Below are positions 528 to 44,304 of a stretch of 64,000 nt of DNA, piece after piece. Positions within the stretch are counted from its first letter, which is position 1. Every line of letters begins with the position of its first letter. A model generated the notes under the pieces. It saw only the letters and a list, made by a program, of their open reading frames with translations. It searched no databases and was not told the DNA's origin. Origin of the DNA: an uncultured Gammaproteobacteria bacterium (GTDB taxonomy: Bacteria > Patescibacteriota > Patescibacteriia > UBA10025 > JAHIVO01); the NCBI GenBank assembly GCA_964415025.1, contig CAYPXF010000001.1, forward strand, positions 78,629 through 142,628, in the 5' to 3' direction. A program made the position numbers and the translations under genes.

Positions 528-3365
528 CTATTTCTTGCTCTCTACTCCGCCTTCCTTGGCCAACGGTATCTGCACGTGAAATGTCGAACCCTTGCCCTCG
601 CCGGCAGACTCGACCCAGATCTTACCGCCATGCGCCTCGGTTAGGCGCCGGGCCACGTACAGCCCCAGACCTGAACCGTCGGGATTAACCTGGGCAATGC
701 CGTAGCCGCGTACGAATTTGGTAAATAGTTTCTTCGCCTCTTCCGGCGGGATGCCGCGGCCGGTGTCGTGCACAGAAAAATGCATCATGCCACCGTCAAC
801 CTCTGTCTTCAGGGTGATACTGCCCTCGTCAGTGTATTTGATGGCATTGTCAGTCAGGTTCATGATCACGTCGCCGAGCTTGTCCGCATCAGCCATAACC
901 GGCGGCAATGGTTTATCCGGCTTGTCATACACGAGCTTCAGATCCTTATCTTCGGCCGCCTTACCTACTACGTGCGCTTCTTTTTCTACCAGCTCTTCGA
1001 ACTGGACCTGACGCTTGTTCAGCTCCAGCTTGCCGGATTCAATCTTGGACACGTTCAAGAACAAGTTGATAAGCCGGATCATACGCTGTGATTCCTCCAG
1101 CAAACCCTGCAGGACTTTATTCTGCTCATCCGGCACTTTGCCAAAGTCTCCCTGCAGGATCATGGACAAGTATCCCATAATACCGGTCATCGGCGTACGC
1201 AGTTGGTGCGAGGCAATGGACACAAACTCTGACTTAGCCTGATCCAGCTGCTGCAGATGTTTGTTCGCCTCGGCCAGGTCACGATTCGAATCCTCCAGCT
1301 GGCGATACAGCTCGATGTTCCGGTACACGATCCCAGTCTGGTTGCACAAGGCCTTCATCATGGACAGGTCGGTTTCCTTGAGCTCGCCTGGATCGCGCTC
1401 TAGCAAGAAATCAATAACACCGACAATGCCTTCTTCCGAATAAATCGGCACGGCGATAATCGTCTTAATACCCAGATGCTCCTGGATTTTCTTGGCTACC
1501 TCTGCCGGAATCGGCGGCGAGATAAAATCGGCAAAGTCTGTGCCGATCTGCACTTTGCCGAGCTTAATCGCTTTGATAGAGCGTGTTTTGTCATTACGGT
1601 AATCACCGTAATATGAATCAAAGGGCTTGGGCAGCAGTTTTAATACTTCCTGTGTTTTTTTGGTCTGGGTCACCGCGTCGGGAAACAACTTATGCTTGTT
1701 CTTGCCTAAAAATAACAAAATCCCTCCTAAATACCCGAGCTCGGTAGTAATGCTGTCAGTGATAGCCTGGGTTACCTTATGAAAGTCCAGGGTACGGGTG
1801 ATGAGGTTGGTGACCTTTTGCAGGGCCGAGAGGAATCTGTTTTGCTCCTGCAGCTGGAGGTTGGTATTGCGCAGGCCTTCGGTGGCTACGGCGACTTCCT
1901 TCTTCAGTCGTTCAGTAAACTGCCTGGCTTCCTCATACAGCCGGGATTTTTCCAGTGCTGAAGCCAGCTGCGGCCCGATCAGAGTCAGCAGATCAATGTC
2001 TTCAGAGCCGAACGGGTCGCCGGACAGCTTAGGTCCCATGACCAGCACGGCATTTAAATTGTTTCCTACCATTACTGGTGCAACCACGGCCGCGTCCAGC
2101 GCATCCAAGGCTTTTTTTGATTGTTCCAGTTTTTTACGCTCTGCTTCGTCCTGGGTATCTTCAATTTTCCGTTCCAATGCTTCGAGTACGATAATTTCCT
2201 TGCGCTCGTTCAGGAAATGTACCAGCGGATTGTCATGCGACAGCCGGTCATCTAACTCCCCATTATTATCCTCTTCCTTGCCTTTTATTTTTTTACCGTT
2301 CGCGTCCAGCCGGCCCTTGCGTTTGTAGTACGCTCCCCCGGCCCGGCCGGATAAATACACGCTGACATTTTTGATTTTGAGCCTGTTCTCCAGTTTGCGC
2401 GACAGCGAGTACAGCAGGACGTCCATATCGATTTCCCTGTTAATGATCCGGCTTAGCTCCTGCAACAGCTTCTGATAATCAATCCGCGCTTTGAAAAATA
2501 ATTGGTCAGTGGCCTTGGCAATACCGCGTTTGAGGGGGTCGAGGATAAGAACGATGAAGATGGATACGGCGATTGATATTACTGTTTTGGTTGTTAGACT
2601 TACAGCGAGTATTTCTGGAAGGAGAAGTGTTAATCCAACGACTGTTACTGAAATAAGAAGGACCACGAGTGAATAGGTGATCGTTCTTAATATTATCAAG
2701 CGAATGTCTAACAACCTATGTTTAACAATTGCATAAGCAGTGAAAGCGATAAAGATAATAGTTGATGGTGGACCAATAATGCTTAATCTAGAAATTCCAA
2801 AAAGAGGCAATACACCACTTACAAATATAGCTAAAAAGGCTGTTATAGTTATCCCGGTTAAGATATATCTTAGCTGCTGTTTCAGAATCCCTGAAGCTCC
2901 TCTAAACTTCTTAAAAAGATTTCTTATTGTTATACCAAGATATAAGACAAAGTATAAATTAAATATAAAATAAACAGGCCCAGGAGTTATCTCGCCCCCC
3001 CAATCATGATGAACAGTGTCAGATATGTTTAATGAGGTAAATGCTAAAGGAAAAAGTATGATTGTGGGCAGAAAAATAAGAAATATTTTTTTTCTACTTA
3101 ATTTCTTTTTTTTACCACTAAAATAATATGAAAATAATACCATAAATGGCAGCATCAGAATTGGACCAATAATTGTCATTCTTGCCCAGAATAAATCAGT
3201 TATAACCATGTCCGCCATTAATACACTAAATATCCAAAAACAAACACTAAATGTCATCAAAGAAAAAATACGATTTACTGTTCTACGAGAATTTCTAACA
3301 AGAACTAATAACGCAATTGTTAAAGTTGCCAAAAAAACTGGTATGTATGTGAAGTAATTAATCAT
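528..3365 (-). CDS. membrane sensor histidine kinase (N-terminal 7TM sensor module, GAF domains, HisKA, HATPase_c)
   Basis: multi-TM N-terminus; HisKA H-box SEFVSIASHQLRTPMTGIMGY; HATPase_c N/G boxes NLTDNAIKYT, DTGRGIP, GSGLGLYV; 945 aa. Confidence 0.85.
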   Translation of the reverse strand: MINYFTYIPVFLATLTIALLVLVRNSRRTVNRIFSLMTFSVCFWIFSVLMADMVITDLFWARMTIIGPILMLPFMVLFSYYFSGKKKKLSRKKIFLIFLPTIILFPLAFTSLNISDTVHHDWGGEITPGPVYFIFNLYFVLYLGITIRNLFKKFRGASGILKQQLRYILTGITITAFLAIFVSGVLPLFGISRLSIIGPPSTIIFIAFTAYAIVKHRLLDIRLIILRTITYSLVVLLISVTVVGLTLLLPEILAVSLTTKTVISIAVSIFIVLILDPLKRGIAKATDQLFFKARIDYQKLLQELSRIINREIDMDVLLYSLSRKLENRLKIKNVSVYLSGRAGGAYYKRKGRLDANGKKIKGKEEDNNGELDDRLSHDNPLVHFLNERKEIIVLEALERKIEDTQDEAERKKLEQSKKALDALDAAVVAPVMVGNNLNAVLVMGPKLSGDPFGSEDIDLLTLIGPQLASALEKSRLYEEARQFTERLKKEVAVATEGLRNTNLQLQEQNRFLSALQKVTNLITRTLDFHKVTQAITDSITTELGYLGGILLFLGKNKHKLFPDAVTQTKKTQEVLKLLPKPFDSYYGDYRNDKTRSIKAIKLGKVQIGTDFADFISPPIPAEVAKKIQEHLGIKTIIAVPIYSEEGIVGVIDFLLERDPGELKETDLSMMKALCNQTGIVYRNIELYRQLEDSNRDLAEANKHLQQLDQAKSEFVSIASHQLRTPMTGIMGYLSMILQGDFGKVPDEQNKVLQGLLEESQRMIRLINLFLNVSKIESGKLELNKRQVQFEELVEKEAHVVGKAAEDKDLKLVYDKPDKPLPPVMADADKLGDVIMNLTDNAIKYTDEGSITLKTEVDGGMMHFSVHDTGRGIPPEEAKKLFTKFVRGYGIAQVNPDGSGLGLYVARRLTEAHGGKIWVESAGEGKGSTFHVQIPLAKEGGVESKK

Positions 3366-4701
3366 TGGAGGTATAAGCTAAATAAACATCCGAATCGATC
3401 TTCGTGGCATCAAATTTAGCAAAGATTGATAATAAACGAGCAAAATATCTACCTTTTTTCTTAGTAAGACTTAGTCTAATAACGTTGGGTAGCAGTGGCG
3501 CTCTTTCAATATTTAAGTCTTTTCTGAACTTATATCCATTAATCTTTTCACTCCAATCTGCCAATATTCTTGCATTTCCTTTTGTTCCCTGGTTTTTTAG
3601 CAAATCCCTAGTTCCAGCAACAAATAGTATCAAATATGCAAATGCAGGCATTTTTTTTGAGGTTAGTATCAATTTAATATAGGCATCTGCGATTCTCCAT
3701 CCCTTAGAAACCCAATTTGCTTTATCAGAATTTTGTTTTCCAATTAACAAGTATAAACCTTTAATTTTATTATCCTCGTCAATTAATAAATACTTATCAT
3801 AACTTGGATTTGATAGATAACTAATAAATTCATCTCTAGTATACTCAAGCTTTTGAGGAGAACTCTTATTAATACCTTTTAGTCTATTATGATATAAATC
3901 ATAAATAATATTTTTGTAATCTTCCGGGATTATATTGGCTTTAGAAATAAAAAACCTATTTTTAAAAAAAATACTATTAAATTTATAAATTATTTGACTT
4001 TGATGATTTTTTTCTGAATCAATAAATTGGCCAAATATTTGAAGTAAGTACTCCGCTCTGGTTTTTTTATTTAATGTTTCTTGCCAATGTATATGCGCAA
4101 AAGTCTCCTCATCTAATAAATGCATCTTACCGTTATTATTACCATTTCTATTTAATATTTCATCAGCAAAATATAAATTAGATAATTTTAAAGATATTTC
4201 TGAGTAGTTCATAACTAAATAAACCTTCTGATTCATATACTTACTGACCTCCACATACAAAGATTCTAGTAATTTTATGTAATTAAGTATTTTATTTTTA
4301 AATAACTCATCTGTATATTTAGATAATATAAACCCACAATTATCCCCTATAAGGAAAAGGGGGGTCCTGTTTCCCATGATCACATTTTTGTTTTTTTTAT
4401 TTTTATTATCATAAAAGTATTCAAATGAATAATGTGATTCCGGATACAGAGCTAGATCGTCAGTCACGAACCAATAACCTAAGAAATTATTGTTTCGTAA
4501 TACACTAATTTTAAGTATTTTCTCATTTTCACAAATACTATCAAATAGTTCTCTAGATAAACTGGGCTTACTTTGCACGGAAGATTTATAGTTTTCTTTG
4601 TAACCACAATAAAAGCCCCACCACTTAAATCTATCTTCATAATCAAGTAATTTAGTTTTTATTTTAATTTCTACACCATTATTCATTTTTTCTCCAAACA
4701 C
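3358..4701 (-). CDS. hypothetical protein (447 aa), AT-rich, Lys/Asn-rich; possibly a FemAB/GNAT-like acyltransferase fold (speculative)
   Basis: long ORF overlapping the downstream methyltransferase by 23 nt (operon-like); composition clearly more AT-rich than neighbours. Confidence 0.4.
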   Translation of the reverse strand: MFGEKMNNGVEIKIKTKLLDYEDRFKWWGFYCGYKENYKSSVQSKPSLSRELFDSICENEKILKISVLRNNNFLGYWFVTDDLALYPESHYSFEYFYDNKNKKNKNVIMGNRTPLFLIGDNCGFILSKYTDELFKNKILNYIKLLESLYVEVSKYMNQKVYLVMNYSEISLKLSNLYFADEILNRNGNNNGKMHLLDEETFAHIHWQETLNKKTRAEYLLQIFGQFIDSEKNHQSQIIYKFNSIFFKNRFFISKANIIPEDYKNIIYDLYHNRLKGINKSSPQKLEYTRDEFISYLSNPSYDKYLLIDEDNKIKGLYLLIGKQNSDKANWVSKGWRIADAYIKLILTSKKMPAFAYLILFVAGTRDLLKNQGTKGNARILADWSEKINGYKFRKDLNIERAPLLPNVIRLSLTKKKGRYFARLLSIFAKFDATKIDSDVYLAYTSND

Positions 4702-5365
4702 TTACCCAAATAAAATAAAGTAGTAAAAATGATTTATCTAAATACATCCTGTTTTTGGTCATCATTTCTTTTAACTCACTCCGAGTGTAATATTTTGCAT
4801 ATGGTTCATCAAAGTACTTTGATTTGAGTAATTTTGTCCACTTTTTTCTAAGAAAACCATCTTGGACTGGATCTAGTAAAATAAATATTCCTTTTTCATT
4901 CAAATATCCACGAAATTTATTTAGTACCTTTGATTGATTATCATAATGGTGAAATGAATTCGAACAAATAACGACATCAAATTTTTTATTTACGTGATAT
5001 TCATGAACATCAGTATTTATAAATTTTATTTTAATATTTTTTGTATTAATAAATTTTAACCTAGCAATATTTAGCATCTCATCCGAAACATCCACCCCCG
5101 TAAAATCTAAAAATGGATATTCTGAGGATAATTTCTTTAATAATGTACCAGTCCCACACCCAACATCAAGAACTGAATTGATTACGTTATTTTTATAGTG
5201 ACTACTAACTAAATTTACAACTTTGCCAGCACTGTATTTAAAATATAAATCCCAAAAACCTTTTTTTTCGTAGCTTCTTGCTAGTGAATTAAACTGCTTT
5301 TGAGATTGTTGAGCATTATTAACCACCCAAATAAAAAAAATTCTTATGTTTATATCATACCACAT
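4679..5365 (-). CDS. class I SAM-dependent methyltransferase (small-molecule type)
   Basis: motif I VLDVGCGTGTLLKKL, post-I acidic residue, FDVVICSNSFHHY motif. Confidence 0.75.
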   Translation of the reverse strand: MWYDINIRIFFIWVVNNAQQSQKQFNSLARSYEKKGFWDLYFKYSAGKVVNLVSSHYKNNVINSVLDVGCGTGTLLKKLSSEYPFLDFTGVDVSDEMLNIARLKFINTKNIKIKFINTDVHEYHVNKKFDVVICSNSFHHYDNQSKVLNKFRGYLNEKGIFILLDPVQDGFLRKKWTKLLKSKYFDEPYAKYYTRSELKEMMTKNRMYLDKSFLLLYFIWVSVWRKNE

Positions 5366-5531
5366 TTTCCCGTTTTTTGCAACTTACCGAAAATAACAAA
5401 ACAGCCCTCATTGTACTGAAAATTTGGGCATTAGCAGTGTTATTGTGGGGAAGCATGGGGTGTGTTTTTATTTTTTCGTTGGTTTTATTTTAGCATAAAA
5501 GTACAAATTATTTAAATTAGCAGCTGAATTT

Positions 5532-6164
5532 TTATTCTGTATCAAATGCAAACGATTGTATTATGCCCTGATATATATTTGTGTATTCAGTTGTCTTTTC
5601 TTGATTGGCAATAATGCCGGATATAATATATCCAGTTCCATCACGAATAATATAGGTATTGATGTTGTACCCATATCCCTCATTGGTTACCTGATATGCT
5701 GGCAGGTCACTAACTGTCATCTCCTCTTCATCTACGATATAGTCCTGGAATCCTCCTTTTCGTGAAAAATCTGCCAAAGAATTACCGGGATAATTATCTA
5801 CGTAGACTTCCAATTTCATGCCCTGAATAAGATCCCCGTCAGTCTCTTGGGCCTGCGCTTCAGGATCAAATAACATCACCAGATCGGCTTTGGAAGTTTT
5901 CTTATCAAGCTGCCAATCTGAAGGAACAATAAAAGAATAATTATATATTGTGTTAGTAATATTGATTCCAGAGTCTACCTGCTGTGTCATAATCACTTCT
6001 TCAGCAGTACGCCTGCTATTTAGATTATTATTCTGATTTATAATATTAACCGGGGTATTATTATTTTGTATTGATGGTTGCTCCCCGTTTTGTCTATTTA
6101 AAAACAGTATTGCAGATACTACTACTAATATAAATATAATAGTTATAAATATTTTTTTACTCAT
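5532..6164 (-). CDS. N-terminally anchored secreted/membrane protein, hypothetical
   Basis: N-terminal TM/signal MSKKIFITIIFILVVVSAILF followed by a hydrophilic domain. Confidence 0.45.
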   Translation of the reverse strand: MSKKIFITIIFILVVVSAILFLNRQNGEQPSIQNNNTPVNIINQNNNLNSRRTAEEVIMTQQVDSGINITNTIYNYSFIVPSDWQLDKKTSKADLVMLFDPEAQAQETDGDLIQGMKLEVYVDNYPGNSLADFSRKGGFQDYIVDEEEMTVSDLPAYQVTNEGYGYNINTYIIRDGTGYIISGIIANQEKTTEYTNIYQGIIQSFAFDTE

Positions 6165-6270
6165 ATAAATGATTACAATACGCTATAGAGAAATGGATGG
6201 AGAATACCAGACATGGTATCAATTATTTTTTATGGTGCATAAAATGATAGCAGTAAAATCAATTAATATC

Positions 6271-6525
6271 TTAATCTGCTAGCAGCACAAGTGCATGACC
6301 AGGCCAGAACAATATTTGAAAAATTGAACGTACAATGATTACAAATACTGCGCTAACCCTAGAAAAATCTCCCTCATTTTGTAATTCTTTTGTGGACGCA
6401 GCATGCTGATCAGGAAACAACAAAATAAAAACAACACCTACAACGGTATATATTGCTAAAACAATAAAAAAAATAATGATGCTTTGACGATGTTTCATAA
6501 AAGTAAATGTATGCTGACCCCTCAT
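6271..6525 (-). CDS. small membrane protein, hypothetical
   Basis: 84-aa ORF with two hydrophobic segments; weak. Confidence 0.25.
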   Translation of the reverse strand: MRGQHTFTFMKHRQSIIIFFIVLAIYTVVGVVFILLFPDQHAASTKELQNEGDFSRVSAVFVIIVRSIFQILFWPGHALVLLAD

Positions 6526-6549
6526 AAAAATGAAAGGTCAGCATCACAG

Positions 6550-7146
6550 TCAATACGTTTTTACCCGTAAATAGTACCTTATGTACCCAGCACCAAATGC
6601 AGAGTAAAGACATGATCCGACAACGCCGGTCACACGCTGATAACCTCCTTCCATCCAGGACCAGCTAGTGATATGGCCACCGTAGCACGCACGAATCGCC
6701 CAGTAGAGCGCCCAGTTGGGAGTAGTAAAGTAATATCCTTGCTGTGAACCGGCCCACCATTTATATTCGAGTCGGAGGTCATAGTCATGACCAGAATAAT
6801 AGTAGTAAGCGGCATACGCGATAATGGTTTGGCTAGTAGCGACTTTCGCTTGATGTTGATTCTGATGAGCAATAAATGCCGCTACCATCTCCTGTTCTTC
6901 TGCCGCGCTTATTTCGGGTACCACTCCAGAATCCCGCAAGGCGTAATAGTTCTGCAGCATCTCTTCAAGAGTTTCCGTGCCACTATATCTGACCGCGGCG
7001 GTCTGCTGACGTGCTTCTGACGGTATATTACCTTGCTCACCGACTGTTGATTGTATTGGAGATTCTTTTTCTGAACAACCAATAACAACCAACAATAGTA
7101 TGGTAGCAATCACTACCATGTGCTTAGAATGCTTCAAAAATATCAT
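6550..7146 (-). CDS. lipoprotein, hypothetical (Tyr/Gly/Trp-rich C-terminus)
   Basis: signal peptide plus lipobox LLLVVIGC-S. Confidence 0.5.
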   Translation of the reverse strand: MIFLKHSKHMVVIATILLLVVIGCSEKESPIQSTVGEQGNIPSEARQQTAAVRYSGTETLEEMLQNYYALRDSGVVPEISAAEEQEMVAAFIAHQNQHQAKVATSQTIIAYAAYYYYSGHDYDLRLEYKWWAGSQQGYYFTTPNWALYWAIRACYGGHITSWSWMEGGYQRVTGVVGSCLYSAFGAGYIRYYLRVKTY

Positions 7147-7645
7147 TTCACTATCCTCACTTTCTTCGATTTCAGTGTTTGATTGTAAATAGCAGTTTTT
7201 CTTTCAGAAAGACCCACATGTGTTTTCTGAAAGCGCCCCCTTTTGGTGCCCCCTTAGTAAAGGTTAGGTGTCATAGGCATCGACCTCCTGTAGGCCTTAG
7301 GCAAATTCCGTTATGCAGAATTAGCCGACGGGCCTTACGTTTGAAAATGAACTGTTTTAGTTGGATGTTTTTTGATATTTAATGTTTTTCCACATGATTT
7401 GCCGACGGCTATTCTATGCGACGGCGCAAGATAAAAATACTGATTAAACTCTAATTAAATTAACTTTTTGATTTGTTATATTTTTTTTCTTTGTATACAG
7501 AGTCGTCTTTTTTTTCATGAGCAATCATCATTTCTACCTTTATTTTAGCATTTTTTAAACCATAAGAAAAGAAAGTATGTACTAATAAATACACACATTT
7601 GACATTATGTTGTAGTGAGGTGTAGGTAGTTTGCCGCAGCTCGGT

Positions 7646-7710
7646 GCCCGCTTCGCGGGAGATCCTTCACCCACACACCATATGATGGTGTGGGGTTCTG
7701 GATGACAAAT
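7646..7710 (+). repeat. two-hairpin GC-rich intergenic motif, copy A
   Basis: about 80% identical to 16119-16183; hairpin cccgcttcgcggg plus hairpin cccacacacca/tggtgtggg with a compensatory change in copy B. Confidence 0.55.
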
Positions 7711-7805
7711 AAGTTGTGGCCAATACTTTATGACAAATGTGTCGTGTTATGGAGGGACTCAACTAACGGTAGTCATTCAGGGTCCGTAATACACTTATCA
7801 TGCAT

Positions 7806-8336
7806 TTATTCCCTGGTGAAATCAATAATCGGGTATATACGAAAACATGAATTGAGCCATTCCTGCCCCCTCTTCTTCTCCAACCAAAAATTAAAACTAG
7901 AATAATCGTAATCTTGCATTTCGTTCACATAATCATGCTTGATGGGATTGTGATGGATGTAATTAAAGTGTTTCCAAAAGTCTGCTTCGTCCCTGATGCA
8001 GTGATCCCAGTAATTATGAAATAACTTAGTTCCTTGGGTGCGGTTCATTTTATTAATTCTATATGAGATTCCTCCGTGTATTTTTTGCATCAGTTGAGGC
8101 AACTTTTCCGCGTTTCTTACTTTGAGCAGTAAATGATAGTGATCTTTTAATATAACCCATGCGATTAAATCGTAGCTCGCTCTCCGGATTTCAGCCTTTA
8201 GGCTGTGGAGTAGTATCTTTTTCATTTCATCCGATTCAAACACGGCACGTTTTTTATGTGTACGAGAGGTTATAAAATAGTACATATTATCTAAAAACAG
8301 ATGTGGTGGGTGGTGAAACTTGTTCATATATGTCAC
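7806..8336 (-). CDS. IS200/IS605-family (Y1 HUH, RAYT-like) transposase
   Basis: HUH motif HYHLLL; size (about 170 aa) and sequence typical of Y1 transposases; the annotated GTG start may really be the internal ATG (MNKFHH). Confidence 0.7.
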   Translation of the reverse strand: MTYMNKFHHPPHLFLDNMYYFITSRTHKKRAVFESDEMKKILLHSLKAEIRRASYDLIAWVILKDHYHLLLKVRNAEKLPQLMQKIHGGISYRINKMNRTQGTKLFHNYWDHCIRDEADFWKHFNYIHHNPIKHDYVNEMQDYDYSSFNFWLEKKRGQEWLNSCFRIYPIIDFTRE

Positions 8337-8616
8337 GCTAAAGTCTGGAATCCTTGGAGCGGTGGTCGGGGACTACAACCTTTGGGCTACTTAACCGGGT
8401 GCTGTCTCACCCTAAAGGGTGAAATCCTGGAGACGACCTGGACTCCTCAACCTCCACACACTCGGTTTCGGAGGGCAAGCGAAAGCTTGGAACGGTTTAC
8501 GGTTTTGCAGGCTCTCGCCTGGACTCCGAACAGGTGCGGTTGTGTGAAAGTTTTGCTATATATCACGCTAAAGCGTGGAATCCTTGAGCGGCTACGGATT
8601 ACAGCCTTTAGGCTGG
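8326..8616 (+). repeat. two direct copies of a roughly 60-bp repeat (tatatRtcacgctaaagNNtggaatccttgagcgg...tacaRcctttRggct) separated by about 170 bp
   Basis: direct comparison of 8326-8390 and 8556-8616; contains the palindrome cagcctttaggctg, which also occurs inside the transposase gene at about 8190. Confidence 0.5.
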
Positions 8617-8628
8617 CAACTTTACTGC

Positions 8629-10053
8629 CTAAGTTCTCCCAATCCTCTCCACCGCCTGTTTATAGAGCAACGCATTCGCGATCGCTCCGGTCATCTGCGG
8701 CTGGAGGCGCTGGAGATAGAGTAGGTTGTCAGCCGTGTAGGCCTCCTTGTTTTCTTTCTTGCCGAAGAAAAACGCCCCAACTAACTCCCCTGGTTCGCCG
8801 ACCGGCACTACCAGCCAGACGCCCATGGCTTTCAGTTCCCGCTCGATACTCTCCAGCATTTGCTGTTCACCCTCGTCCTTCTCCTCCTTGAGGTAGGGAA
8901 TCTCTTCGGTAACGATAATACTTTCCTGCTCGCGCAGATAGCGAAATAGCGCCGTATCGGATCCCGCCTGCACCCGCCGCTCATCAGGATAATAATTTTC
9001 CAGGATATTCTTCTGTCGATTTAGCCAGATGAATTGGATATCAGAGGCACCGAGAAACTCGCTAAATTCAGCTCGTATCCGCTTAATCAGCTGATCAAAC
9101 TGCAGAGAGGACGACATAATACTGCGCAGTTTGCTTGATTCAGCCTTTGTATCCTTTTGCTGTGAATAAAATACACGGTCGATCGCTTTTACTAATAATC
9201 GCCGCAGCGGTTCGATTGTCAGGGCAATGATTAAAACAATTAGTATGGTAGTCGCTTGCTCGGACCAACTGTAATTGATTTCTAATAGCCTTTTCGAGAA
9301 AAGTAATAAGTAAATGTATATAGCTGATAGCAGTATTATCGACAAAGAATATACAATTCCTTTTCTTATCACTAATCTAATATCAAGCAACCTATAACGT
9401 AAAATAGAATATGCAAAAGCTAGTGAAATAAATATTGTTCCTAATGAACCCCAGTAACTTTTAATATTTTCGATAAAATAGGGCAAAATTAAATCAGCTA
9501 GGGATCCAATTAATGATGCTAAAGCAAAACCAAATATAACATATTTTAATTTTACTTTTTCTAGTGGTTTACAATTTTTGTATTTTTTATATATAACAAA
9601 AAAAGTGATAATTAAATAAATAATTATATAGAGTGAAAATACATAGTGATAATCACCATACACCGGGGTGCCGAGGCCATCTTCATTAATAAATTGATCC
9701 TTAAAAAATGCATTACCCAAAGACGTCCACCCGATAATGATTGGGGGTATTGTTAATAAAATTATATGAATGAGTTTTACTCTACTTTTGTAAGGAAAAA
9801 ATATTGAAAATAATAGAAATGAGGGGACGATTAATCCTCCCATTAAAAATGAAACTCTCCCAAAAACAGCGGTTACTTCAGCGCTTCCAGTAAAATAGGC
9901 AAAATAATTACCTGCTAGCCAACCATTTAGAATAATAATCAGTATAAAGTAGGTCCACTTAATTCCGCTTCTCTTGCTTCTCACGAGTACCAAAAACGCA
10001 ACTGCAAAGTTTATTAGAATTACTACTAGATATATAATTTTTATTAAAGACAT
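8629..10053 (-). CDS. 7TM sensor module plus GAF domain protein (histidine-kinase-like N-terminus without kinase domains)
   Basis: N-terminal 7TM region paralogous to that of the 528-3365 kinase; C-terminal GAF-like region; ORF ends exactly at the repeat block of the IS element. Confidence 0.6.
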   Translation of the reverse strand: MSLIKIIYLVVILINFAVAFLVLVRSKRSGIKWTYFILIIILNGWLAGNYFAYFTGSAEVTAVFGRVSFLMGGLIVPSFLLFSIFFPYKSRVKLIHIILLTIPPIIIGWTSLGNAFFKDQFINEDGLGTPVYGDYHYVFSLYIIIYLIITFFVIYKKYKNCKPLEKVKLKYVIFGFALASLIGSLADLILPYFIENIKSYWGSLGTIFISLAFAYSILRYRLLDIRLVIRKGIVYSLSIILLSAIYIYLLLFSKRLLEINYSWSEQATTILIVLIIALTIEPLRRLLVKAIDRVFYSQQKDTKAESSKLRSIMSSSLQFDQLIKRIRAEFSEFLGASDIQFIWLNRQKNILENYYPDERRVQAGSDTALFRYLREQESIIVTEEIPYLKEEKDEGEQQMLESIERELKAMGVWLVVPVGEPGELVGAFFFGKKENKEAYTADNLLYLQRLQPQMTGAIANALLYKQAVERIGRT

Positions 10054-10103
10054 ATAGTTTCCCTCGAATTACAATTTATTTCTAAATCACTCTTTTTTGG
10101 TTG

Positions 10104-11903
10104 TTAGCTTTTTGACTTTCTAGTTTTTCCGTACTTCGTAACTGCCCATAAATACATTAATGAATTTTTGATATATGTATTCATATGCATAACAATTTTT
10201 TTGATTGCCATGATATCCTGCACATTATAGGAGCTCTGTTTATTGATCGCCGCTATTACTCCTAATAATTCATTATTTGAAATAACGGGTATCAACAGGG
10301 AAATACTATGGTCAGCCATGGCTTTTTTAATTGCTTGAAAATAATCTTTCGGTATCCCATTTTGATAATATTGTGCATAGCTGGGAATCTCGCTAAATAC
10401 TAATATATTGCCGGTACGCACTAAATATTCTGTCAAATAACTATTATTATTCAGAATTAATGTATCAGCTTCATGAGATGGCATCTGAAAAGAGCTATAT
10501 ACAATTGCTCTTCGAGCTTCATGTTTGAGATACAGCGAGATATGTTCAGCTTTAAGCAAGTGCTGTACCTGGGAAGTAAAAGCATCTAAATCATCAATAA
10601 ATTTATTATAAACGTTACTATGTACTCCCGACGCAGATAACCGCTTGCTGTAGCTATTATCTGTGCTCTGTTCCTGATTCAGAATTATTTCAGCACTAAT
10701 TTTTTTCTGCTTATTTATTTGATGAATATTATTTCGCAGGGGTCTACTGTTTTGTTTTTTTACAATACTATACTGGTGTTTAATTTTTGAAATCATCCCC
10801 TGTCTCAAAGCTTTATTTTGTGCTGGTGTAAAGGTAAATTTTTCATCCAGTTGTTCTGCTGCTTGCGTAAGTAACTTGTTATCAAAATATTTTATTTCAT
10901 CAGCAATCTCATTATTATCTGTCCGTACCAGTGCGACTTCATACCCAGCGCCGACCATTGCCTTATAACTTTCTAGATATACGTTAGCTCCAAAAATATA
11001 TAATTGCGGCTGGGGCGAATCACCCGCCGTAAATGTGAAAGACTTATCAAGAGTGTCATTATCTAAGAATTTTATCAGCTCTTGGAAACGTAACTGCAGT
11101 TCCTTGGCGGAATACCCCATCTGAATTAATAAATTTGACCGAGGCGTCAACATGCATCGCACCGTTATGTTATTTTTAACCAGTTTGCTGATCAGTTTTT
11201 GCTCCCGCTTGCAATAACAAGTTTGCCTGCTATTTGTTGCGACATCTTTATCCGAATGTGAAAAACAGGATAAGCCGGTATGTAATCGAAGTATATTATT
11301 ATGCTGTGACGGTCGTAGTAGCATATCAGCCCCTTTCTGCAACCATGCATATCTTTCTTCTTTCGAATGTATATAAAGCGGATAACGGCCGGTGGGATTC
11401 TTCTCTAGAGCCGTAGTAATAATTGATTTAATACTCTTATCTTTTTCCGCAAAAACTATTTTCCCGTCAAATTCGTCAATTGTTTCTATGAGGGCAGCGG
11501 CAGTTTGTCTGACGATATTACCGCAATAATTAAATCTAGATATTGAATCAAAATTCTGATATTCAGATACTAAATTATTACAAATATAGCTCCCCTTTGT
11601 TGATAAGCGTTTGTCTATTTTCCTGCGAAAAGCAATAATAATTTCCATAAGTTTTGGGGATACGGACTCGTTATCTTCAGCCGGTCCAAATATATGCGCT
11701 AAGATCATTTCGGCTGCCGCGATCGCGCCGCAACAGCGACTGCCATCCAGCCCACCACGCCGCAAACTATGCAGACCAGGGGACATAGAATCAAATGCCT
11801 TGGCTATGGCAATGCTGCATCCATAGTGTTCGCCATCATGATTTCCAAAATAGTAATCCTGTGATTTTTGAATGTATTGTTTGGAAATATTATCGATTGC
11901 CAT
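10104..11903 (-). CDS. C_GCAxxG_C_C-family domain protein with C-terminal GAF-like domain
   Basis: N-terminal HYGCSIAIAKAF...RCCGAIAAAEMIL matches the C-GCAxxG-C-C motif; C-terminal LLIPVISNNELLGVIAAINK is GAF-like. Confidence 0.55.
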   Translation of the reverse strand: MAIDNISKQYIQKSQDYYFGNHDGEHYGCSIAIAKAFDSMSPGLHSLRRGGLDGSRCCGAIAAAEMILAHIFGPAEDNESVSPKLMEIIIAFRRKIDKRLSTKGSYICNNLVSEYQNFDSISRFNYCGNIVRQTAAALIETIDEFDGKIVFAEKDKSIKSIITTALEKNPTGRYPLYIHSKEERYAWLQKGADMLLRPSQHNNILRLHTGLSCFSHSDKDVATNSRQTCYCKREQKLISKLVKNNITVRCMLTPRSNLLIQMGYSAKELQLRFQELIKFLDNDTLDKSFTFTAGDSPQPQLYIFGANVYLESYKAMVGAGYEVALVRTDNNEIADEIKYFDNKLLTQAAEQLDEKFTFTPAQNKALRQGMISKIKHQYSIVKKQNSRPLRNNIHQINKQKKISAEIILNQEQSTDNSYSKRLSASGVHSNVYNKFIDDLDAFTSQVQHLLKAEHISLYLKHEARRAIVYSSFQMPSHEADTLILNNNSYLTEYLVRTGNILVFSEIPSYAQYYQNGIPKDYFQAIKKAMADHSISLLIPVISNNELLGVIAAINKQSSYNVQDIMAIKKIVMHMNTYIKNSLMYLWAVTKYGKTRKSKS

Positions 11904-11905
11904 AT

Positions 11906-12499
11906 TTACAATTTATTCCTAAAATTTTCGTCCTTATCCATTAATTCCTCCAGCAGCTGGCGGAGGAAATCAGCTTTTGTTTTCTTAATCTTCTTCGCTT
12001 TCCAGAGGAGGTAACGCTCCATGCGGGGGGTGATGCGCAGGGTGAATTTTATAGTCGGCTTTTGCTTCAGCCCTTTTCCCTCGCTGACCTCATGCAGGAA
12101 ATCCATGACCGTCTGCTCCAGGTCCTGCTTGGTATATTTGGCCAGGCGCATGTATTCGGGCGTGTTTTTCTTGGTCAGGTAGCCGTGGGCGATTTTTTCC
12201 GGGGTGCCTTTTTTATACAGGTAGAGCAACGGCTTTTTCTGGGAAATGGCGTAGGCCAGGAGATAGCCGATTTCCTGGTCCGGCTTGGATGCCTCCACGA
12301 TGATACAGTCCATCTTGTCCAGCAGTATCTCCCCTGACTCCTGCATGCGCTCGAGTTCCTCTTTCTTAAAATCAGTATTATTCTCGTCTGATGAGGCCAC
12401 TACAAATACACCGGCCTGCCGTAGTGTTTCGACGACAGTCTTATAATTCTGGTCGAGTTCGGTGGTAGATATTAATGGTGAGAAAAAGTAAACGCGCAT
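11906..12499 (-). CDS. nucleoside 2-deoxyribosyltransferase-like domain fused to C-terminal ribbon-helix-helix (CopG-like) domain
   Basis: N-terminus RVYFFSPL (compare KIYLAGP), EASKPDQEIGYLLAYAISQKKPL (catalytic Glu-type motif); C-terminus KFTLRITPRMERYLLWKAKKIKKTKADFLRQLLEEL is RHH-like. Confidence 0.45.
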   Translation of the reverse strand: MRVYFFSPLISTTELDQNYKTVVETLRQAGVFVVASSDENNTDFKKEELERMQESGEILLDKMDCIIVEASKPDQEIGYLLAYAISQKKPLLYLYKKGTPEKIAHGYLTKKNTPEYMRLAKYTKQDLEQTVMDFLHEVSEGKGLKQKPTIKFTLRITPRMERYLLWKAKKIKKTKADFLRQLLEELMDKDENFRNKL

Positions 12500-12507
12500 T
12501 GTATTCG

Positions 12508-12951
12508 TTATAGTTTAACGGTTTGGGTTTGGCGGCTCGTATCGTCTAACGTTTTCGTTTCACGTCTATTTATAAATTTATCCCAGGCCACAGCTAGTTT
12601 AAATAACTGACGGGCTGACTTATCATACATATCGATAAGTTGGGTACATAAAGTAACCTCAATATGATAAATATCTTTCACTTGCTCAATACTGACAATA
12701 CATTCATTGCTTTCTGCCATAGCATCATCAATATATTTCTGAAATCCTGCTCGTTGATGCTTTTTAGCATATCCTTCAGCGACCAATCGCGGTGCTGCTT
12801 TAGACGACCTGCTGAGCTGATCTTTCAAATCATATCTCTCACTCGTAGGCAATTTTGGGATAATTCTCGTCATCACTAAAATACATGCTTTATATAAATT
12901 TTGATAAACGTCTAAATCTCGAAAGCTTCTGATTTTATTCTTACTATCCAT
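12508..12951 (-). CDS. four-helix-bundle protein (23S rRNA intervening-sequence protein family, TIGR02436-like)
   Basis: FRDLDVYQNLYKA...ERYDLKDQLSRSSKAAPRLVAEGYAK family signature. Confidence 0.7.
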   Translation of the reverse strand: MDSKNKIRSFRDLDVYQNLYKACILVMTRIIPKLPTSERYDLKDQLSRSSKAAPRLVAEGYAKKHQRAGFQKYIDDAMAESNECIVSIEQVKDIYHIEVTLCTQLIDMYDKSARQLFKLAVAWDKFINRRETKTLDDTSRQTQTVKL

Positions 12952-13043
12952 AATTTTTTAGTGTAATTATTGCTTTTAACACAATACCTTTTAACTATGC
13001 CGATACGAGCTGCAATAACGTTAACCGGATAACGAAACCCTCC

Positions 13044-14054
13044 CTATTTAAAAGGTTCAACTGTATCGTCCTGCCACATAAACATTCTTATCTTACCAAT
13101 ATCGTTCGTCTGCCCGAGCGCCCACATAAACTTCACAAACGTGATTTCAAACGTCATATCATTTATCAAAATATACTCCCGCTTCTTTTTCTTGACGTCC
13201 AGGGCAAAAGGGTTGTGCGCCACGATGGGGATTTGCTGCTGGTAGGCTTTAGCTAATATTGGTTTAAATGAATCAGGAAATAAATTCGTGTTAAAACTTT
13301 TGACAATAACGCCTTGGCACTGATCGGTCAGCATGTTTTCCAGCAGTTCGGGTCTAGCGCCGGGGTAGAGCTGGAGTAAACAGACTTTATCGGCTATTGC
13401 ATGGTTCAGCTGTAATGCGCCTTTGCGCCGTTTACGGGCCCGGCTAAAAAGCTTGATGCCGAAATCGACCTTGCCCAGCATTCCCTCTTTATCAGCGTCG
13501 AAGAAATTAAACGACGGCGTGTCGCCTTTGGCCGTGGCCGTGGCCCGGATCAGCCGATTGCCAAACATAATGGCTACTTCGGACAGATCCATGGTCGCCA
13601 CCTGGATAGCATTGATTAGGTTTGCTTTCACGCCCAGTGATTTGTAGTCAGAGATCAGGCCGGACAAATCCTGCTTGTCAGATTCTGCTACCTCGGCCGA
13701 CAGCGGCGACCCGGTGAAGACTACCGGCTTACCCAAATTCCCCAGCATGAAGTGCATCATGGCCGCGGTATAGATCATGGTGTCCACGCCGTGGATTATC
13801 ACAAATCCGTCGTACTGCTCATACAGCTCCTTGATTTTCTTGCCGAGCGTGACCCACAGTTCGGGCTTGATTTCCGAAGCGTCCTCGCCAAACACAAACA
13901 CCGGCTCGATGTCCGCGATCAGGTTTATTTCAGGCACAGCACTAAGCCACGGCTTGATATCAGCTGGTTTTTGCACAGACAGAACCCGTTTGTCAGCGAT
14001 CAGCGCCGTCCCGCCGCAGAATAGTAATGCTATTTTTTCGTTCGACTTTGGCAT
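13044..14054 (-). CDS. L-asparaginase (type I) / asparaginase-glutaminase family
   Basis: LFCGGTA N-terminal threonine motif, HGVDTM, 336 aa. Confidence 0.7.
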   Translation of the reverse strand: MPKSNEKIALLFCGGTALIADKRVLSVQKPADIKPWLSAVPEINLIADIEPVFVFGEDASEIKPELWVTLGKKIKELYEQYDGFVIIHGVDTMIYTAAMMHFMLGNLGKPVVFTGSPLSAEVAESDKQDLSGLISDYKSLGVKANLINAIQVATMDLSEVAIMFGNRLIRATATAKGDTPSFNFFDADKEGMLGKVDFGIKLFSRARKRRKGALQLNHAIADKVCLLQLYPGARPELLENMLTDQCQGVIVKSFNTNLFPDSFKPILAKAYQQQIPIVAHNPFALDVKKKKREYILINDMTFEITFVKFMWALGQTNDIGKIRMFMWQDDTVEPFK

Positions 14055-14104
14055 TTGAAAATATCCAATTCCTTAATATCCAATATCCAATCAATGACTA
14101 ATGC

Positions 14105-14773
14105 TTAATGCTTTTTAGTTATTAAATATAAAATACTTGCCAAAACAAAGAAAGCTGAATATGGACCCATCCAAATTAATTGATAATTCCCTATTAAAGG
14201 TAAAATCAAATTGAAAGTAACACCTATGGAAAAACCAATGATAAACCCTATTGAAATATATTGTAATTGTATCTTATTGACTCCTTCACTTGTCCTGAGC
14301 TTCTTAAACAGTATAACAAAGGAATTAATAATATAAGCTAAAAATACCGCTACATACAAATAGTATGCCTCATTTAAAATAATTATGTTCCCACTATCTG
14401 TTTTTTCCGCGTGGTTGATTAGAACTGATGGCGCTACTATAAGTATAATTAATATTAATGCAGGTATATATAGCAGGAATATTTTTCTTTTATCGATTTT
14501 TAGAGACGGAAATGGATATACTAATGAAAAATAATAAAAAGTTGGCGCAATTAATATCGCTGCGATATAATAGAGCACCGCATAAACTACAGCATAATCC
14601 AAATTGTTGCTTATAATAAATAATCCTAAACCCACACTCCATAATCCCGCAAAAAAGAATAACAGCGCAAATGATAAATTAATATGTGATTTTCGATTTC
14701 TGCCGTAAATGTAGCCGGTAATTACAAAACTTATTGCGGTTATTACAAATAATATTATACTTTTTATTTCCAT
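14105..14773 (-). CDS. stand-alone 7TM sensor-module membrane protein (paralog of the kinase N-termini)
   Basis: 7 predicted TM helices; N-terminus similar to those of the 528-3365 and 8629-10053 products. Confidence 0.55.
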   Translation of the reverse strand: MEIKSIILFVITAISFVITGYIYGRNRKSHINLSFALLFFFAGLWSVGLGLFIISNNLDYAVVYAVLYYIAAILIAPTFYYFSLVYPFPSLKIDKRKIFLLYIPALILIILIVAPSVLINHAEKTDSGNIIILNEAYYLYVAVFLAYIINSFVILFKKLRTSEGVNKIQLQYISIGFIIGFSIGVTFNLILPLIGNYQLIWMGPYSAFFVLASILYLITKKH

Positions 14774-15266
14774 ATTGACTAATAACTAACAACTAACTAC
14801 CAAACAATTATCCAAAAACCAACACCTAAAAACCTATGCTCCATATTTCCCTTATATTATGCGCCGTCGCGGATTAGAGCGCCGTCGCACTTTTACCCTA
14901 CCCTACTGCTCATATTTTCGTCAATATTGCATTATCCACTACTATGTGGAAAACTAACAATAAATTTTAAAAAATTCCTTTATTTAAAGGGCTAATGCAG
15001 TAATATATAAAGCCGCTATTCTATATATACAAAGGAATTGCACATTACGAAAAAACCTCTTATCATAGGATAAAACCAATTGCTGGCTACATCGTGTGTC
15101 AAACAATTACCCCCCTAGTTTCCTGATATGATTCTGGCCGGCATTTTTTATTGCATTATTATACCGATATGATTAGGTGTGCTATAGTATAGGTGGTTCT
15201 TCATTCTGGAGTTTTTCATATAGATTCATGGTTTTGTACAAAACCATACCGTACTTTCATTCATAC

Positions 15267-15327
15267 CCCGGCCATAATTCACGATTTCTAGTACCCGACT
15301 TATTTACATTATGGCCGGGTTTTTTTA
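15267..15327 (+). terminator. long-loop hairpin followed by T7 (terminator-like or structured RNA)
   Basis: ccccggccataa ... ttatggccgggt with T-run 15321-15327; loop about 30 nt. Confidence 0.3.
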
Positions 15328-15458
15328 TATGCATATTTTTGGTATACTTATTCTGCTCCTTTCTTAAGACAAGTCCCACCTCTTCTTCTTTATTTAATAC
15401 CCTGGTTACTGCTAATACTAAGAGTAGAGGTGGGTATTTTTTTATGCACAAAAAGCCC

Positions 15459-15486
15459 TTGACGGCCTGAAAATATTGGGTATAAT
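15459..15486 (+). promoter_or_regulatory. sigma70-like promoter TTGACG-16-TATAAT
   Basis: 15459 ttgacg, 15481 tataat; followed 7 nt later by a 13-bp stem terminator (15493-15528). Confidence 0.45.
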
Positions 15487-15492
15487 GCAAAT

Positions 15493-15528
15493 AGAACGAC
15501 CACTGGCCCACGGTGGTTGTTCTTTTTT
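15493..15528 (+). terminator. rho-independent terminator/attenuator immediately downstream of the promoter
   Basis: agaacgaccactgg/cggtggttgttct stem (with G-U pairs) plus a T6 run. Confidence 0.45.
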
Positions 15529-15586
15529 AATTTTCCGCCTGAAAATTAAAAAACACTAGGTTATCGAGGTGTGCTATTACCCTATA

Positions 15587-15798
15587 TTGACATGCTTATT
15601 GCCTGGTATACAATAAAACTAGAACCTTCTAATACCCGCTACAATATCCCCCCAATGGGCAAAGCCACATCAAGTCGTAACCAATTTGCTTTTGATCTGA
15701 CAACATTATGAGGGGGAAACATGGACTGCCGTGTCCATGGTCTATTCTGTCAATCCCAGGAAGCATAGCCTACCATTTATGCTGCCTGGGATTTTTTT
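15587..15798 (+). ncRNA. candidate small transcription unit (promoter TTGACA-16-TACAAT at 15587-15614, terminator 15755-15798); roughly 180-nt RNA with a 15-codon micro-ORF
   Basis: consensus-like promoter; terminator cccaggaagcat/atgctgcctggg plus T7; GAGGGGGAAAC-ATG micro-ORF MDCRVHGLFCQSQEA at 15721-15768. Confidence 0.35.
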
Positions 15799-16118
15799 AT
15801 ACACGTGATAACGAAATGAATAAACTCAACTAGCCGGGGGTCTGATAAGTAGTGTTTGACATATTCGGCGACTTATTTATACTATTAGAGCAGTGTAATA
15901 TACTGCGATTATACTCCATATCTAACAGCCGGGTCATGCGTGGCCTGGCTGCGAACATCGATCTTTTAATATAAAAATCCTTGATCTGGTTCTGCCCGAT
16001 GTACATACAGGTCTTGTTTTCTCTCAACAACGCCACTCGGTAACGGGTGGCGTCTTTATTACAATAAAATATTTGTCATTCCCAAAAATAACCCGCTGCA
16101 TTCATAGTCAAATCAAGC

Positions 16119-16183
16119 CGCCCGCTGCGCGGGAGATTCTTCACCCACGCACCTTCAAAAGGTGCGCGGTTCAGGATGCCAAC
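16119..16183 (+). repeat. two-hairpin GC-rich intergenic motif, copy B
   Basis: about 80% identical to 7646-7710 with a compensatory a>g / t>c change in stem 2. Confidence 0.55.
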
Positions 16184-16220
16184 AAGGGTAAGGATAGAGT
16201 ACCCACTGACAAATATTTAT

Positions 16221-17510
16221 TTATTTCCAGGCCAACCCCTGGCGGACCAATAGTTCCCCTGCCCGGAGCGGCTCGGCCATGAGCTCCTTCACTATTTTTT
16301 CCATGCGTGCGCCTTGGGAACCCTTTACCAGAACAATATCGCCTTTTTTCATCCGCTGCTGGATAAACTTACCGGCAGATTCTGTATCAGCAAAACTGTA
16401 AACCTGTTCAGTGGCCATACCTGCTTGTCTGGCTCCCTCGGCAATTAGTTTGGCGCGTTCACCTACAGTAACCAGATAATCACACGTAGTAGCGGCTGTT
16501 TCGCCTACTTCACGGTGGCCCTGTTCAGTATACGAACCCAGCTCCAGCATGTCACCGAGCGCGGCAAACTTCTTGCCAGACACCGTCATATCAGCCAAAA
16601 CCTTGAGCGCGGCTCTGGCCGCCATTGGTGATGAATTATAGGAGTCGTCAATTAGTGACGTATGCTTGATGCCGGGTAAGAGCCGCATGCGTCCAGCCGG
16701 CGACTGGTACTGTTTAAGCGCGGCAGAAATATCGGCCAAATTCATATCCATGGCAATACCGACTGCCGCTGCGGCCAAGGCGCTGTATACCTGGTGGGTC
16801 CCCAGGACTGAAGGCAAAAACACCGGCACGGTTGAGCCCTGATACTGCAGCTTAAAACTAATACCTTTTATATCCTGGTCTATCCAGGGATCTGGTGAAT
16901 GGCCGGTAGAAATACTGACTTCCGTAGCTCTAACCTGCGTTTGCTCTGAAAAACCGAACGATACTATCTGCGCTCTGGTCTTTTCCCGGGTTTGAGTAAC
17001 CAGCGAGTCATCAGTATTCAGTACAGCGAAGTCGTCCTTTTTCAATCGGGCGATAATCTGCTGTTTTTCGCGCATGACTTTATCCACACTGCCGAACAGC
17101 TCAGTATGTACCGAGCCGATTGCCGTAATCACACTAATATGGGGTGGCGCGATAGCCGTCAAATAACTTATGTCACCAGGCTTATCAGCGCCCATTTCCA
17201 AAACTAGTACTTCTGGATACTCCTTCTTGGTGAATAAAACCATGCCCGTTGCCCGAAGAAAAATACCTACCCAAATAAATGGATTTTTCCGGCCTGACTC
17301 CATGCCCAGAATAGCCAGCGGCAGGCCGATTTCATTGTTATAGTTGCCGATATTTTTGCCCACTCGATATTTCCCGGATAACACAGTAACTATTGCTTCT
17401 TTAGTAGCTGTTTTGCCTACGCTGCCGGTAATACCAATGATGATGGGTTTATACTTCTGTAAAACCCAGCGGGCGAAGAGCTTTAGTTTCCACTCTATAA
17501 TACGTTTCAT
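16221..17510 (-). CDS. murF: Mur ligase family protein, probable UDP-MurNAc-tripeptide--D-Ala-D-Ala ligase, N-terminal domain absent
   Basis: P-loop IIGITGSVGKTATKEAI at residue about 25; Mur ligase central and C-terminal regions; position downstream of ftsI in the dcw cluster. Confidence 0.6.
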   Translation of the reverse strand: MKRIIEWKLKLFARWVLQKYKPIIIGITGSVGKTATKEAIVTVLSGKYRVGKNIGNYNNEIGLPLAILGMESGRKNPFIWVGIFLRATGMVLFTKKEYPEVLVLEMGADKPGDISYLTAIAPPHISVITAIGSVHTELFGSVDKVMREKQQIIARLKKDDFAVLNTDDSLVTQTREKTRAQIVSFGFSEQTQVRATEVSISTGHSPDPWIDQDIKGISFKLQYQGSTVPVFLPSVLGTHQVYSALAAAAVGIAMDMNLADISAALKQYQSPAGRMRLLPGIKHTSLIDDSYNSSPMAARAALKVLADMTVSGKKFAALGDMLELGSYTEQGHREVGETAATTCDYLVTVGERAKLIAEGARQAGMATEQVYSFADTESAGKFIQQRMKKGDIVLVKGSQGARMEKIVKELMAEPLRAGELLVRQGLAWK

Positions 17511-44144: not shown

Positions 44145-44171
44145 GACCGCATCGCGGTTACTATAAACCAA

Positions 44172-44204
44172 AAAGACCCCGAGCATGTGCAAAGGGTCTT
44201 TTTG
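44172..44204 (+). terminator. rho-independent terminator
   Basis: aaaagacccc-gagcatgtgcaaa-gggtctttttgg. Confidence 0.5.
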
Positions 44205-44304
44205 GTTGGCGAGAGACTCTTTTGTCGACGGGATCCTGAATCAGGTTCAGGATGACATGTTGTTATATTACCTTGTCATTCCGGGCTAGGCCCAATTATT
44301 ATAT

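Follow-up and report, generated by a model that had tools for sequence, protein, structure and literature searches.

Two copies of a two-hairpin motif in a Patescibacteria genome: probable half-decayed members of a CGTC/TGTC-tagged REP-like DNA repeat

A motif of about 65 nt that folds into two hairpins occurs twice in the 64,000-nt stretch of Patescibacteria DNA analysed here (the window), and in one of its stems a base change on one arm is matched by a change on the other. Does this pattern mark a structured RNA, a DNA element moved by the transposase gene that lies beside one of the copies, or a repeat of another kind? The first-pass annotation had placed the first two possibilities side by side, proposing either a REP-like element mobilised by an adjacent RAYT-like transposase or a small structured RNA. 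We find that the two copies, A and B, are probably diverged and half-decayed copies of a CGTC/TGTC-tagged REP-like DNA repeat.

The pairwise identity of about 80% originally given for 7646-7710 and 16119-16183 holds: the two copies, both on the plus strand, are 81% identical over 63 nt. The best-fitting spans are 7646-7708 for copy A and 16120-16182/84 for copy B, the latter one base off the 16119-16183 first proposed, and the sequences around the 65-nt core of A and B are unalignable to each other. Both copies are intergenic, as claimed, according to the ORF listing and to gene calls on Logan contigs. A 29-nt degenerate pattern drawn from A and B matches only these two sites in the window with up to three mismatches allowed (chance expectation 0.00, from 100 dinucleotide shuffles). 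A covariance model built from the two copies, a check suggested in the first-pass annotation, recovered both of them with filters off (A, 95.4 bits; B, 94.5 bits) and found nothing else above 20 bits in a scan of the whole 64-kb window, so that this part of the check yielded the known pair and no further copy. The tally for the 64 kb read is two A/B-type copies and one canonical dimer, the relatives being denser; a high copy number in the host genome is more than two copies and one dimer per 64 kb can demonstrate. No mobility was observed: copy B is identical in the two available sequencing runs of one organism (L024 and L025).

Both copies fold into the two hairpins described for them. Hairpin 1 has the form CCCGC-NNC-GCGGG, and hairpin 2 the form AUYC(U)/internal loop/ACCCAC[R]CACC...GGUG[Y]G.GG/(W)GGAU. 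The RNA folding energy is -31.2 kcal/mol for A (z = -4.8) and -26.2 kcal/mol for B (z = -2.5). On the reverse strand the values are about equal to those of the plus strand (A, -30.2; B, -27.4 kcal/mol), and single-stranded DNA folds give z scores of -5.3 for A and -2.5 for B. Since both strands, and single-stranded DNA, fold about equally, the structure singles out no RNA strand. A closing helix is predicted around the 65-nt core of A and has no counterpart at B.

The compensatory a>g/t>c change is real; it turns the A-U pair formed by alignment columns 32 and 48 into G-C. Of the 18 base pairs no other has changed on both sides, and 267 of 500 shuffles do as well; because only two sequences are available, this control is uninformative and the compensatory pair carries no statistical weight. 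The other stem differences between A and B are one C-G to U-G change and one unpaired cell, and the remaining differences lie chiefly in the loops, the internal loop, and the flanks. A single compensatory change is as compatible with a DNA palindrome as with an RNA.

Read on the minus strand, the copies follow a common plan (Table 1): a TGTC tag, an outer stem of 4-5 bp that begins with AT, a tandem GA-GA loop, an inner hairpin of 9-10 bp, the returning arm of the outer stem, and a CTC tail. Copy A reads TTTGTC-ATCC(A)-GA-[ACCCCACACC..GGTGTGTGGGT]-GA-(A)GGAT-CTC on this strand, followed beyond the CTC tail by the central hairpin CCCGC-GAA-GCGGG. It thus combines the TGTC tag (GACA at 7704-7707 of the plus strand), the AT-first stem, and the CTC tail with an expanded inner hairpin of 28 nt. 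In copy B the tag is one substitution off (GACA to GCCA; GGC on the minus strand).

The small GC-rich hairpin 1 that follows the CTC tail corresponds to the central spacer hairpin found in intact dimers of related contigs, and hairpin 1 of copy A may be interpreted as the spacer hairpin of a former head-to-head dimer. The partner unit that would lie across it has decayed. At copy A the remnant is statistically detectable: when the left flank is aligned with the right unit in reverse complement, the score is one that eight of 2000 shuffles reach (∼0.004), and the region includes the left arm of an outer inverted repeat (7593-7610). At copy B the case is partial; shuffling gives no significant partner-unit remnant in the left flank, of which only TGTC-ATTCC is left.

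A significant inverted repeat encloses each copy and delimits a composite of about 150 nt, a feature that the first-pass annotation did not mention. At A the arms are ACACATTTGACAT (from 7593) and ATGACAAATGTGT (ending at 7742), matched by two of 2000 shuffles; at B they are AATATTTGTCA (16068-78) and TGACAAATATT (16207-17), matched by one of 2000. The partner remnant, the coincidence of the outer repeats with the tag region, and the family features described below together lead us to see in A and B head-to-head dimers, now half-decayed, that represent an expanded variant of the family.

In both copies a second tag, GACAAAT or ATGACAAAT-like, follows downstream of the first at a distance of 28-31 nt, and a small hairpin separates the two. 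At A the second ATGACAAAT tag lies 28 nt past the first within a direct repeat (7702-7718/7730-7746), and at B the corresponding segments are 16174-16182 and 16207-16217; in each case the second tag is the right outer arm. Its origin might be a third unit that was truncated, or else a duplication.

Table 1. Coordinates of the REP-like copies, their flanking elements, and the neighbouring transposase features in the window
Feature	Position	Strand	Characteristics or basis
Copy A, decayed left partner unit	7593..7645	.	Keeps tag-like TTTGaCAT and an inner-stem remnant
Copy A, hairpin 1	7646..7659	-	CCCGC-TTC-GCGGG; RNA and single-stranded DNA folds
Copy A, REP-like unit	7659..7709	-	Folds, covariance model, pattern comparison
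Copy A, right arm of outer inverted repeat	7725..7742	.	2/2000 shuffles
RAYT gene (REP-associated tyrosine transposase)	7806..8336	-	176 aa; Pfam Y1_Tnp, E = 9.7e-9
RAYT-linked hairpin cluster	8327..8615	.	CASSC-TWWA-GSSTG and GRAWTCC
Copy B, left arm of outer inverted repeat	16068..16084	.	Holds intact TGTC-ATTCC start of left partner
Copy B, hairpin 1	16120..16133	-	CCCGC-TGC-GCGGG; fold and covariance model
Copy B, REP-like unit	16133..16182	-	GAG-ATTCT..AGGAT-GCCA
Copy B, right arm of outer inverted repeat	16207..16217	.	TGACAAATATT, a second tag
Third superfamily locus	44230..44296	.	Canonical unit and inverted partner

A third locus in the window belongs to the same superfamily. Its canonical unit (44230-44257) reads TGTC-ATCCTGAA-CCTGA-TTCAGGAT-CCC on the minus strand, with a stem of 8 and a loop of 5, and its partner (44274-44296) reads TGTC-ATTCCGGGC-TA-GGCCCAAT. 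The two TGTC tags (44254-57 and 44274-77) face inward, making this a tail-to-tail dimer. The pair sits just past a terminator-like hairpin (∼44170-44205) at the 3′ end of a gene. A finder for units with 5-bp stems gives ∼2.5 chance matches per 64 kb, and we have therefore limited the count for the window to units verified in the sequence.

Beyond the window, we searched metagenomes with a gapped pattern that placed no constraint on the inner stem. Contigs L011 and L012 proved to be true relatives; a further candidate from the metagenome scan, L010, was rejected as a chance match. Both relatives carry GAGATCCTTC-ACCCC..GGGGT-TCAGGATGAC(AA) with other inner stems and another hairpin 1, and the ends that they have in common with A and B are GAGATYCTTC and TCAGGATGAC. 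In L011 there are eight units in 12 kb, arranged as four head-to-head dimers, where shuffles predict 0.6 units. The doublet there takes the form CGTC-ATYCTGA...GAAGRAT-CTC, a spacer, and GAG-ATYCTTC...TCAGRAT-GACG. One CGTC head-to-head dimer of this contig (6009-6100) lies in frame within a Wzy_C (O-antigen ligase) domain, and the 475-aa ORF gains ∼30 residues from it.

Contig L020 comes from a relative whose MurF is 70% identical and whose gene order is conserved; it has at least seven units in 21 kb. Its TGTC-tagged head-to-head dimers (9888-9954, 15135-15220, and 20207-20290) have a central hairpin, CTGACC-TTG-GGTCAG, between the two units, and at the centre of a fourth element (15921-15939) stands GGTGCCCGC-AGG-GCGGGAGA, a near match to hairpin 1 of copy A. 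The dimer at 20207-20290 follows a 475-aa HisKA_7TM gene and so occupies the same syntenic place as copy A.

A scan of IMG/VR with GTCATYCTGA...GAAGRATCTC found at least 120 loci and at least 155 units. The base before GTC, which the pattern leaves unconstrained, is T in 119 of the 155 units listed, with C in a further 25. Inner segments in the listed units are mostly 7 nt long (GCGCAGC or GCGAAGC) and reach 36 nt, the longer segments often forming a hairpin of their own, so the 28 nt of copy A fall within the range of the family. The contigs concerned (L026-L145, at least 120 of them) are classed as viral, and one of them, L069, has up to six units in 10.6 kb; either the repeats populate phage genomes too, or many of these contigs are cellular. 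A search with the 19-mer CGGGAGATNCTTCACCCAC gave no match among viral contigs and eight in a collection of genome contigs; the eight come from unrelated phyla and none has the hairpins, and we therefore regard all of them as chance. The signature, together with the scatter of units and dimers across environmental genomes, some of them related and others not, supports the description of the motif as a REP-like element.

The repeats most like these are the CGTC superfamily, which according to the text of its published survey comprises CGTC-1 to CGTC-4 and includes Neisseria dRS3 and Rickettsia RPE-4 and RPE-6 (Di Nocera, De Gregorio, and Rocco 2013, BMC Genomics 14:522, PMC3733652). As described there, a unit has a CGTC tag, often TGTC and also CCTC, and its first stem pairs are A-T and T-A; the stem is 8-9 bp, the loop 4-5 nt, and a short unpaired tail has the consensus CCA. 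The same text describes the units as mostly head-to-head dimers with tags outside and 20-100 bp apart, with spacers that sometimes contain a small stem-loop, and singletons as often being dimer remnants. Copies lie downstream of genes, and some are in-frame intragenic copies encoding 20-30 aa; the repeats are reported in five phyla, with no dedicated transposase in the account given there (PMC3733652).

Much of this description fits A and B, which we set against the families as they are characterized in the survey's text (PMC3733652). Copy A has the unpaired terminal TGTC, from which B is one substitution removed; AT...AT stands just inside the tag in A, B, the 44230 unit, L011, L012, and L020; and a short unpaired tail, of another sequence than the consensus, lies opposite the tag. 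Head-to-head dimers with tags outside and a spacer stem-loop are seen in the relatives, the location is 3′ of genes, L011 provides an in-frame intragenic copy, and no dedicated transposase flanks the units. There are also clear differences. The A/B unit is ∼48 nt long and has an outer stem of 4-5 bp, a GA/GA internal loop, and an inner stem of 9-10 bp with a loop of 3-7 nt, unlike the published stem of 8-9 bp and loop of 4-5 nt, dimensions that the 44230-44257 unit and one L020 unit (9887-9914) do have. In place of the published CCA, the tail reads CTC in A and B, as it does in L011, L012, and L020, and it reads CCC at 44230. The Patescibacteria host is outside the five reported phyla, and copy number here is low. 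Given the stem and loop dimensions and the CTC tail, we do not file A and B as plain members of CGTC-1 to CGTC-4. The Rickettsia palindromic elements (Ogata et al. 2000, as cited in PMC3733652), of which RPE-4 and RPE-6 are CGTC-tagged according to the survey's text, are likewise palindromes inserted in frame, as is the Wzy_C dimer of L011, but A and B are intergenic, and both the host lineage and the sequence are different. A search of the literature for strings of the repeat DNA or of its pseudo-peptides returned unrelated primer matches only, and we found no literature linking REPs with Patescibacteria.

Could the motif instead be a functional RNA, either a small RNA or a domesticated 3′-UTR element whose hairpins are under selection at the RNA level? 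The loops vary but the stems are kept, one of their pairs having changed in compensation and another from G-C to G-U; the fold z-scores of both copies are strong; and both lie in sense orientation just 3′ of genes. The plus strand alone allows a 9-bp helix around A that has two G-U pairs (GCCGCAGCU/AGUUGUGGC), and selection on function could alternatively explain why hairpin 1 and the inner stem are 81% conserved beside flanks that do not align. Against this, the plus-strand closing helix of A has no counterpart at B, both copies fold about equally on the two strands, and Rfam 15 has no match over A or B at the gathering threshold or at E up to 10. Our scans found no promoter- or terminator-like sites around A and none at or adjoining B, where the nearest terminator-like hairpin is ∼65 nt upstream (16030-16053); neither copy has an intrinsic terminator on either strand, and no T-run follows the hairpins. 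Motif B is also missing from the orthologous region downstream of murF in three relatives (L019, 77% MurF identity; L020 and L022/L023, 70%). The sequence signatures, moreover, place A and B in a DNA repeat family that also inserts inside ORFs. The lack of an Rfam match and of transcription signals, the symmetric folds, and the membership in an ORF-inserting repeat family argue against a conserved regulatory RNA, and we consider the small structured RNA proposed in the first-pass annotation very unlikely. More improbable still by a little is a composite MITE of ∼150 nt with terminal inverted repeats of 11-13 bp (ATTTGTCA...TGACAAAT), moved by a DDE transposase and having the 65-nt motif as its conserved interior. 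In favour of such an element, A and B are both enclosed by significant inverted repeats at similar distances, and the repeats do match within each copy while differing between A and B. However, between the inverted repeats and the 65-nt core A and B are not alignable, unlike MITE copies; no target-site duplication is evident at A or B, and no matching transposase is found nearby. The core of the inverted repeats (TTTGTCAT/ATGACAAA) consists of the family tag plus the first stem bases, and the arms are therefore better read as tags of partner units.

The transposase beside copy A raises a further alternative, and it is genuine: the "RAYT-like" gene is a RAYT by both the NCBIfam (NF047646, 117.4 bits; cut-off 80) and the Pfam profiles. 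GTAG REPs and REPINs together with a RAYT (TnpAREP) form a REPtron (Nunvar 2010; Bertels and Rainey 2011; Ton-Hoang 2012; Quentin 2018, PMC6006769), and the motif might be the cognate REP of this RAYT, cleaved and rejoined as single-stranded DNA and dispersed in consequence. Copy A lies 96 nt downstream of the gene, whose HuH (HYHLL) and Y (YIHHNP) motifs are intact, and L013 has, at the corresponding syntenic position, a 60%-identical RAYT with a degenerate GGTCAT...CAGGACA element after it. Like the repeats of a GTAG REPtron, the motif consists of short GC-rich palindromes, often in inverted doublets, which would act as single-stranded DNA hairpins. Unlike them, A and B have no GTAG (GT[AG]G) at the feet of their hairpins, and the RAYT is not flanked on both sides by the A/B motif, the TGTC motif standing on its downstream side only. 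What flanks the gene on both sides, here and in its homologues in L013 and L014 (60% and 53% identity), is a different hairpin, specific to the RAYT, that also occurs within the gene. In the window it is found at 8408-8421, 8564-8577, and 8602-8615, in degenerate form at 8327-8356, and within the CDS at 8192-8205; in L013 at 9960-9973, 10123-10136, and 10548-10561; and in L014 at 9841-9854, 9902-9915, 9922-9935, and 10556-10569. Its copies, in both orientations, stand upstream of the gene, across the stop codon (in L013 and L014), and inside the CDS at a conserved position (the SLKAEI codons). None is found elsewhere in the window or in the RAYT-free contigs L011, L012, L019, L020, and L022. 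This hairpin, CASSC-TWWA-GSSTG followed by GRAWTCC, looks like a REPtron or IS200-like end structure specific to this RAYT clade. By tblastn there is no RAYT in L011, L012, L020, or L022, all of which have TGTC/CGTC units. No unit is present at the RAYT homologue loci L016 and L018; in L014 a distance of 590 nt, with another gene in between, separates the RAYT from the nearest dimer; and at the syntenic site in L020 the dimer is present and the RAYT absent. The published survey found no RAYT flanked by CGTC units (PMC3733652), and by a rough estimate (three loci, ∼8 kb of intergenic DNA) the probability that one element lies near the RAYT by chance is ∼0.1. The proposal that the motif is mobilised by the adjacent RAYT is thus unsupported in view of the gene's own hairpins, the one-sided position of the motif, and the presence of TGTC units in RAYT-free stretches. 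Because a RAYT can act in trans, which makes the RAYT-free loci compatible with a REPtron, and because L013 has its degenerate tagged element, we keep this reading as an unlikely one. It is similarly doubtful that the RAYT gene and the TGTC unit directly downstream form a conserved pair with a degenerate form in L013. If they did, a dedicated tyrosine transposase would for the first time be known for a CGTC/TGTC-type REP, a class reported to lack one, and the pairing would sit in a streamlined Patescibacteria genome.

Several other classes of element were considered and set aside. ARAGORN finds no tRNA or tmRNA. A TnpB/IscB guide RNA was rejected, the 429-aa neighbour of copy B being MurF and no TnpB being found; and retron, attC, and CRISPR readings were dropped, as there is no RT or integrase nearby and the spacing is not regular.

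The REP-like repeat reading is carried by the family signature, by the dispersion of units and dimers in relatives, and by the absence of the motif at orthologous sites. Under it, the units would spread as DNA, probably through single-stranded hairpin intermediates handled by a putative enzyme, as the REP literature suggests. Palindromic constraint, or repair within the palindrome, would keep the stems complementary, and this would account for the single compensatory change. Copy B follows murF (16221-17510, minus strand) at a distance of 37 nt and stands just right of the plus-strand terminator-like hairpin at 16030-16053, and the tag strand of both copies is sense to the upstream minus-strand genes (the RAYT gene and murF). 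If transcribed, the copies would form stable 3′-UTR hairpins of about -27 to -31 kcal/mol that could incidentally protect mRNA ends, as for REPs generally. Since the tag strand with its tandem GA/GA loop is sense to murF and the RAYT gene, such a passive 3′-UTR role is plausible.

The surroundings of the copies have features of their own. To the left of copy B, 14774-16119 is a 1.35-kb AT-rich stretch without convincing ORFs. It contains three strong plus-strand promoter-like sites at 15459-86, 15587-614, and 15856-83 (each with 11 of 12 matches) and terminator-like plus-strand hairpins at 15493-523 and 16030-53, which on sequence grounds make it a candidate source of small transcripts. GC content is 0.30-0.46 at 2000-16000 and 0.43-0.52 across the rest of the window; the low-GC part may be lineage-typical rather than a recent island, much of its gene set being common to L013 and L020. 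The names carried by close homologues put the genome among the Patescibacteria. The sole Rfam match in the window is a ribosomal protein L10 leader (RF00557; 31622-31780, minus strand; 48.5 bits, gathering threshold 44). There is also a 53-nt direct repeat (44748-44800 and 44869-44921), 75% identical and 121 nt apart, with the sequence AAGGAGGGGT...CTCGTTACTTTTAGTA...GGGGAGG.

With A and B read as REP-like repeats, a false lead is removed: the covariation-like signal comes from a palindromic DNA repeat and not from a new riboswitch or small RNA. To the five other phyla from which CGTC/TGTC repeats are known, Patescibacteria can be added, and many IMG/VR contigs contain them too. There they take an expanded form, with an inner hairpin in the unit and a central hairpin in the dimer, and in-frame copies within genes are possible. 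Repeats of this kind break assemblies, seed spurious ORFs, and mimic structured-RNA signals in comparative screens, so that recognition of the pattern TGTC-AT...GA...GA...AT-CTC aids the annotation of these genomes.
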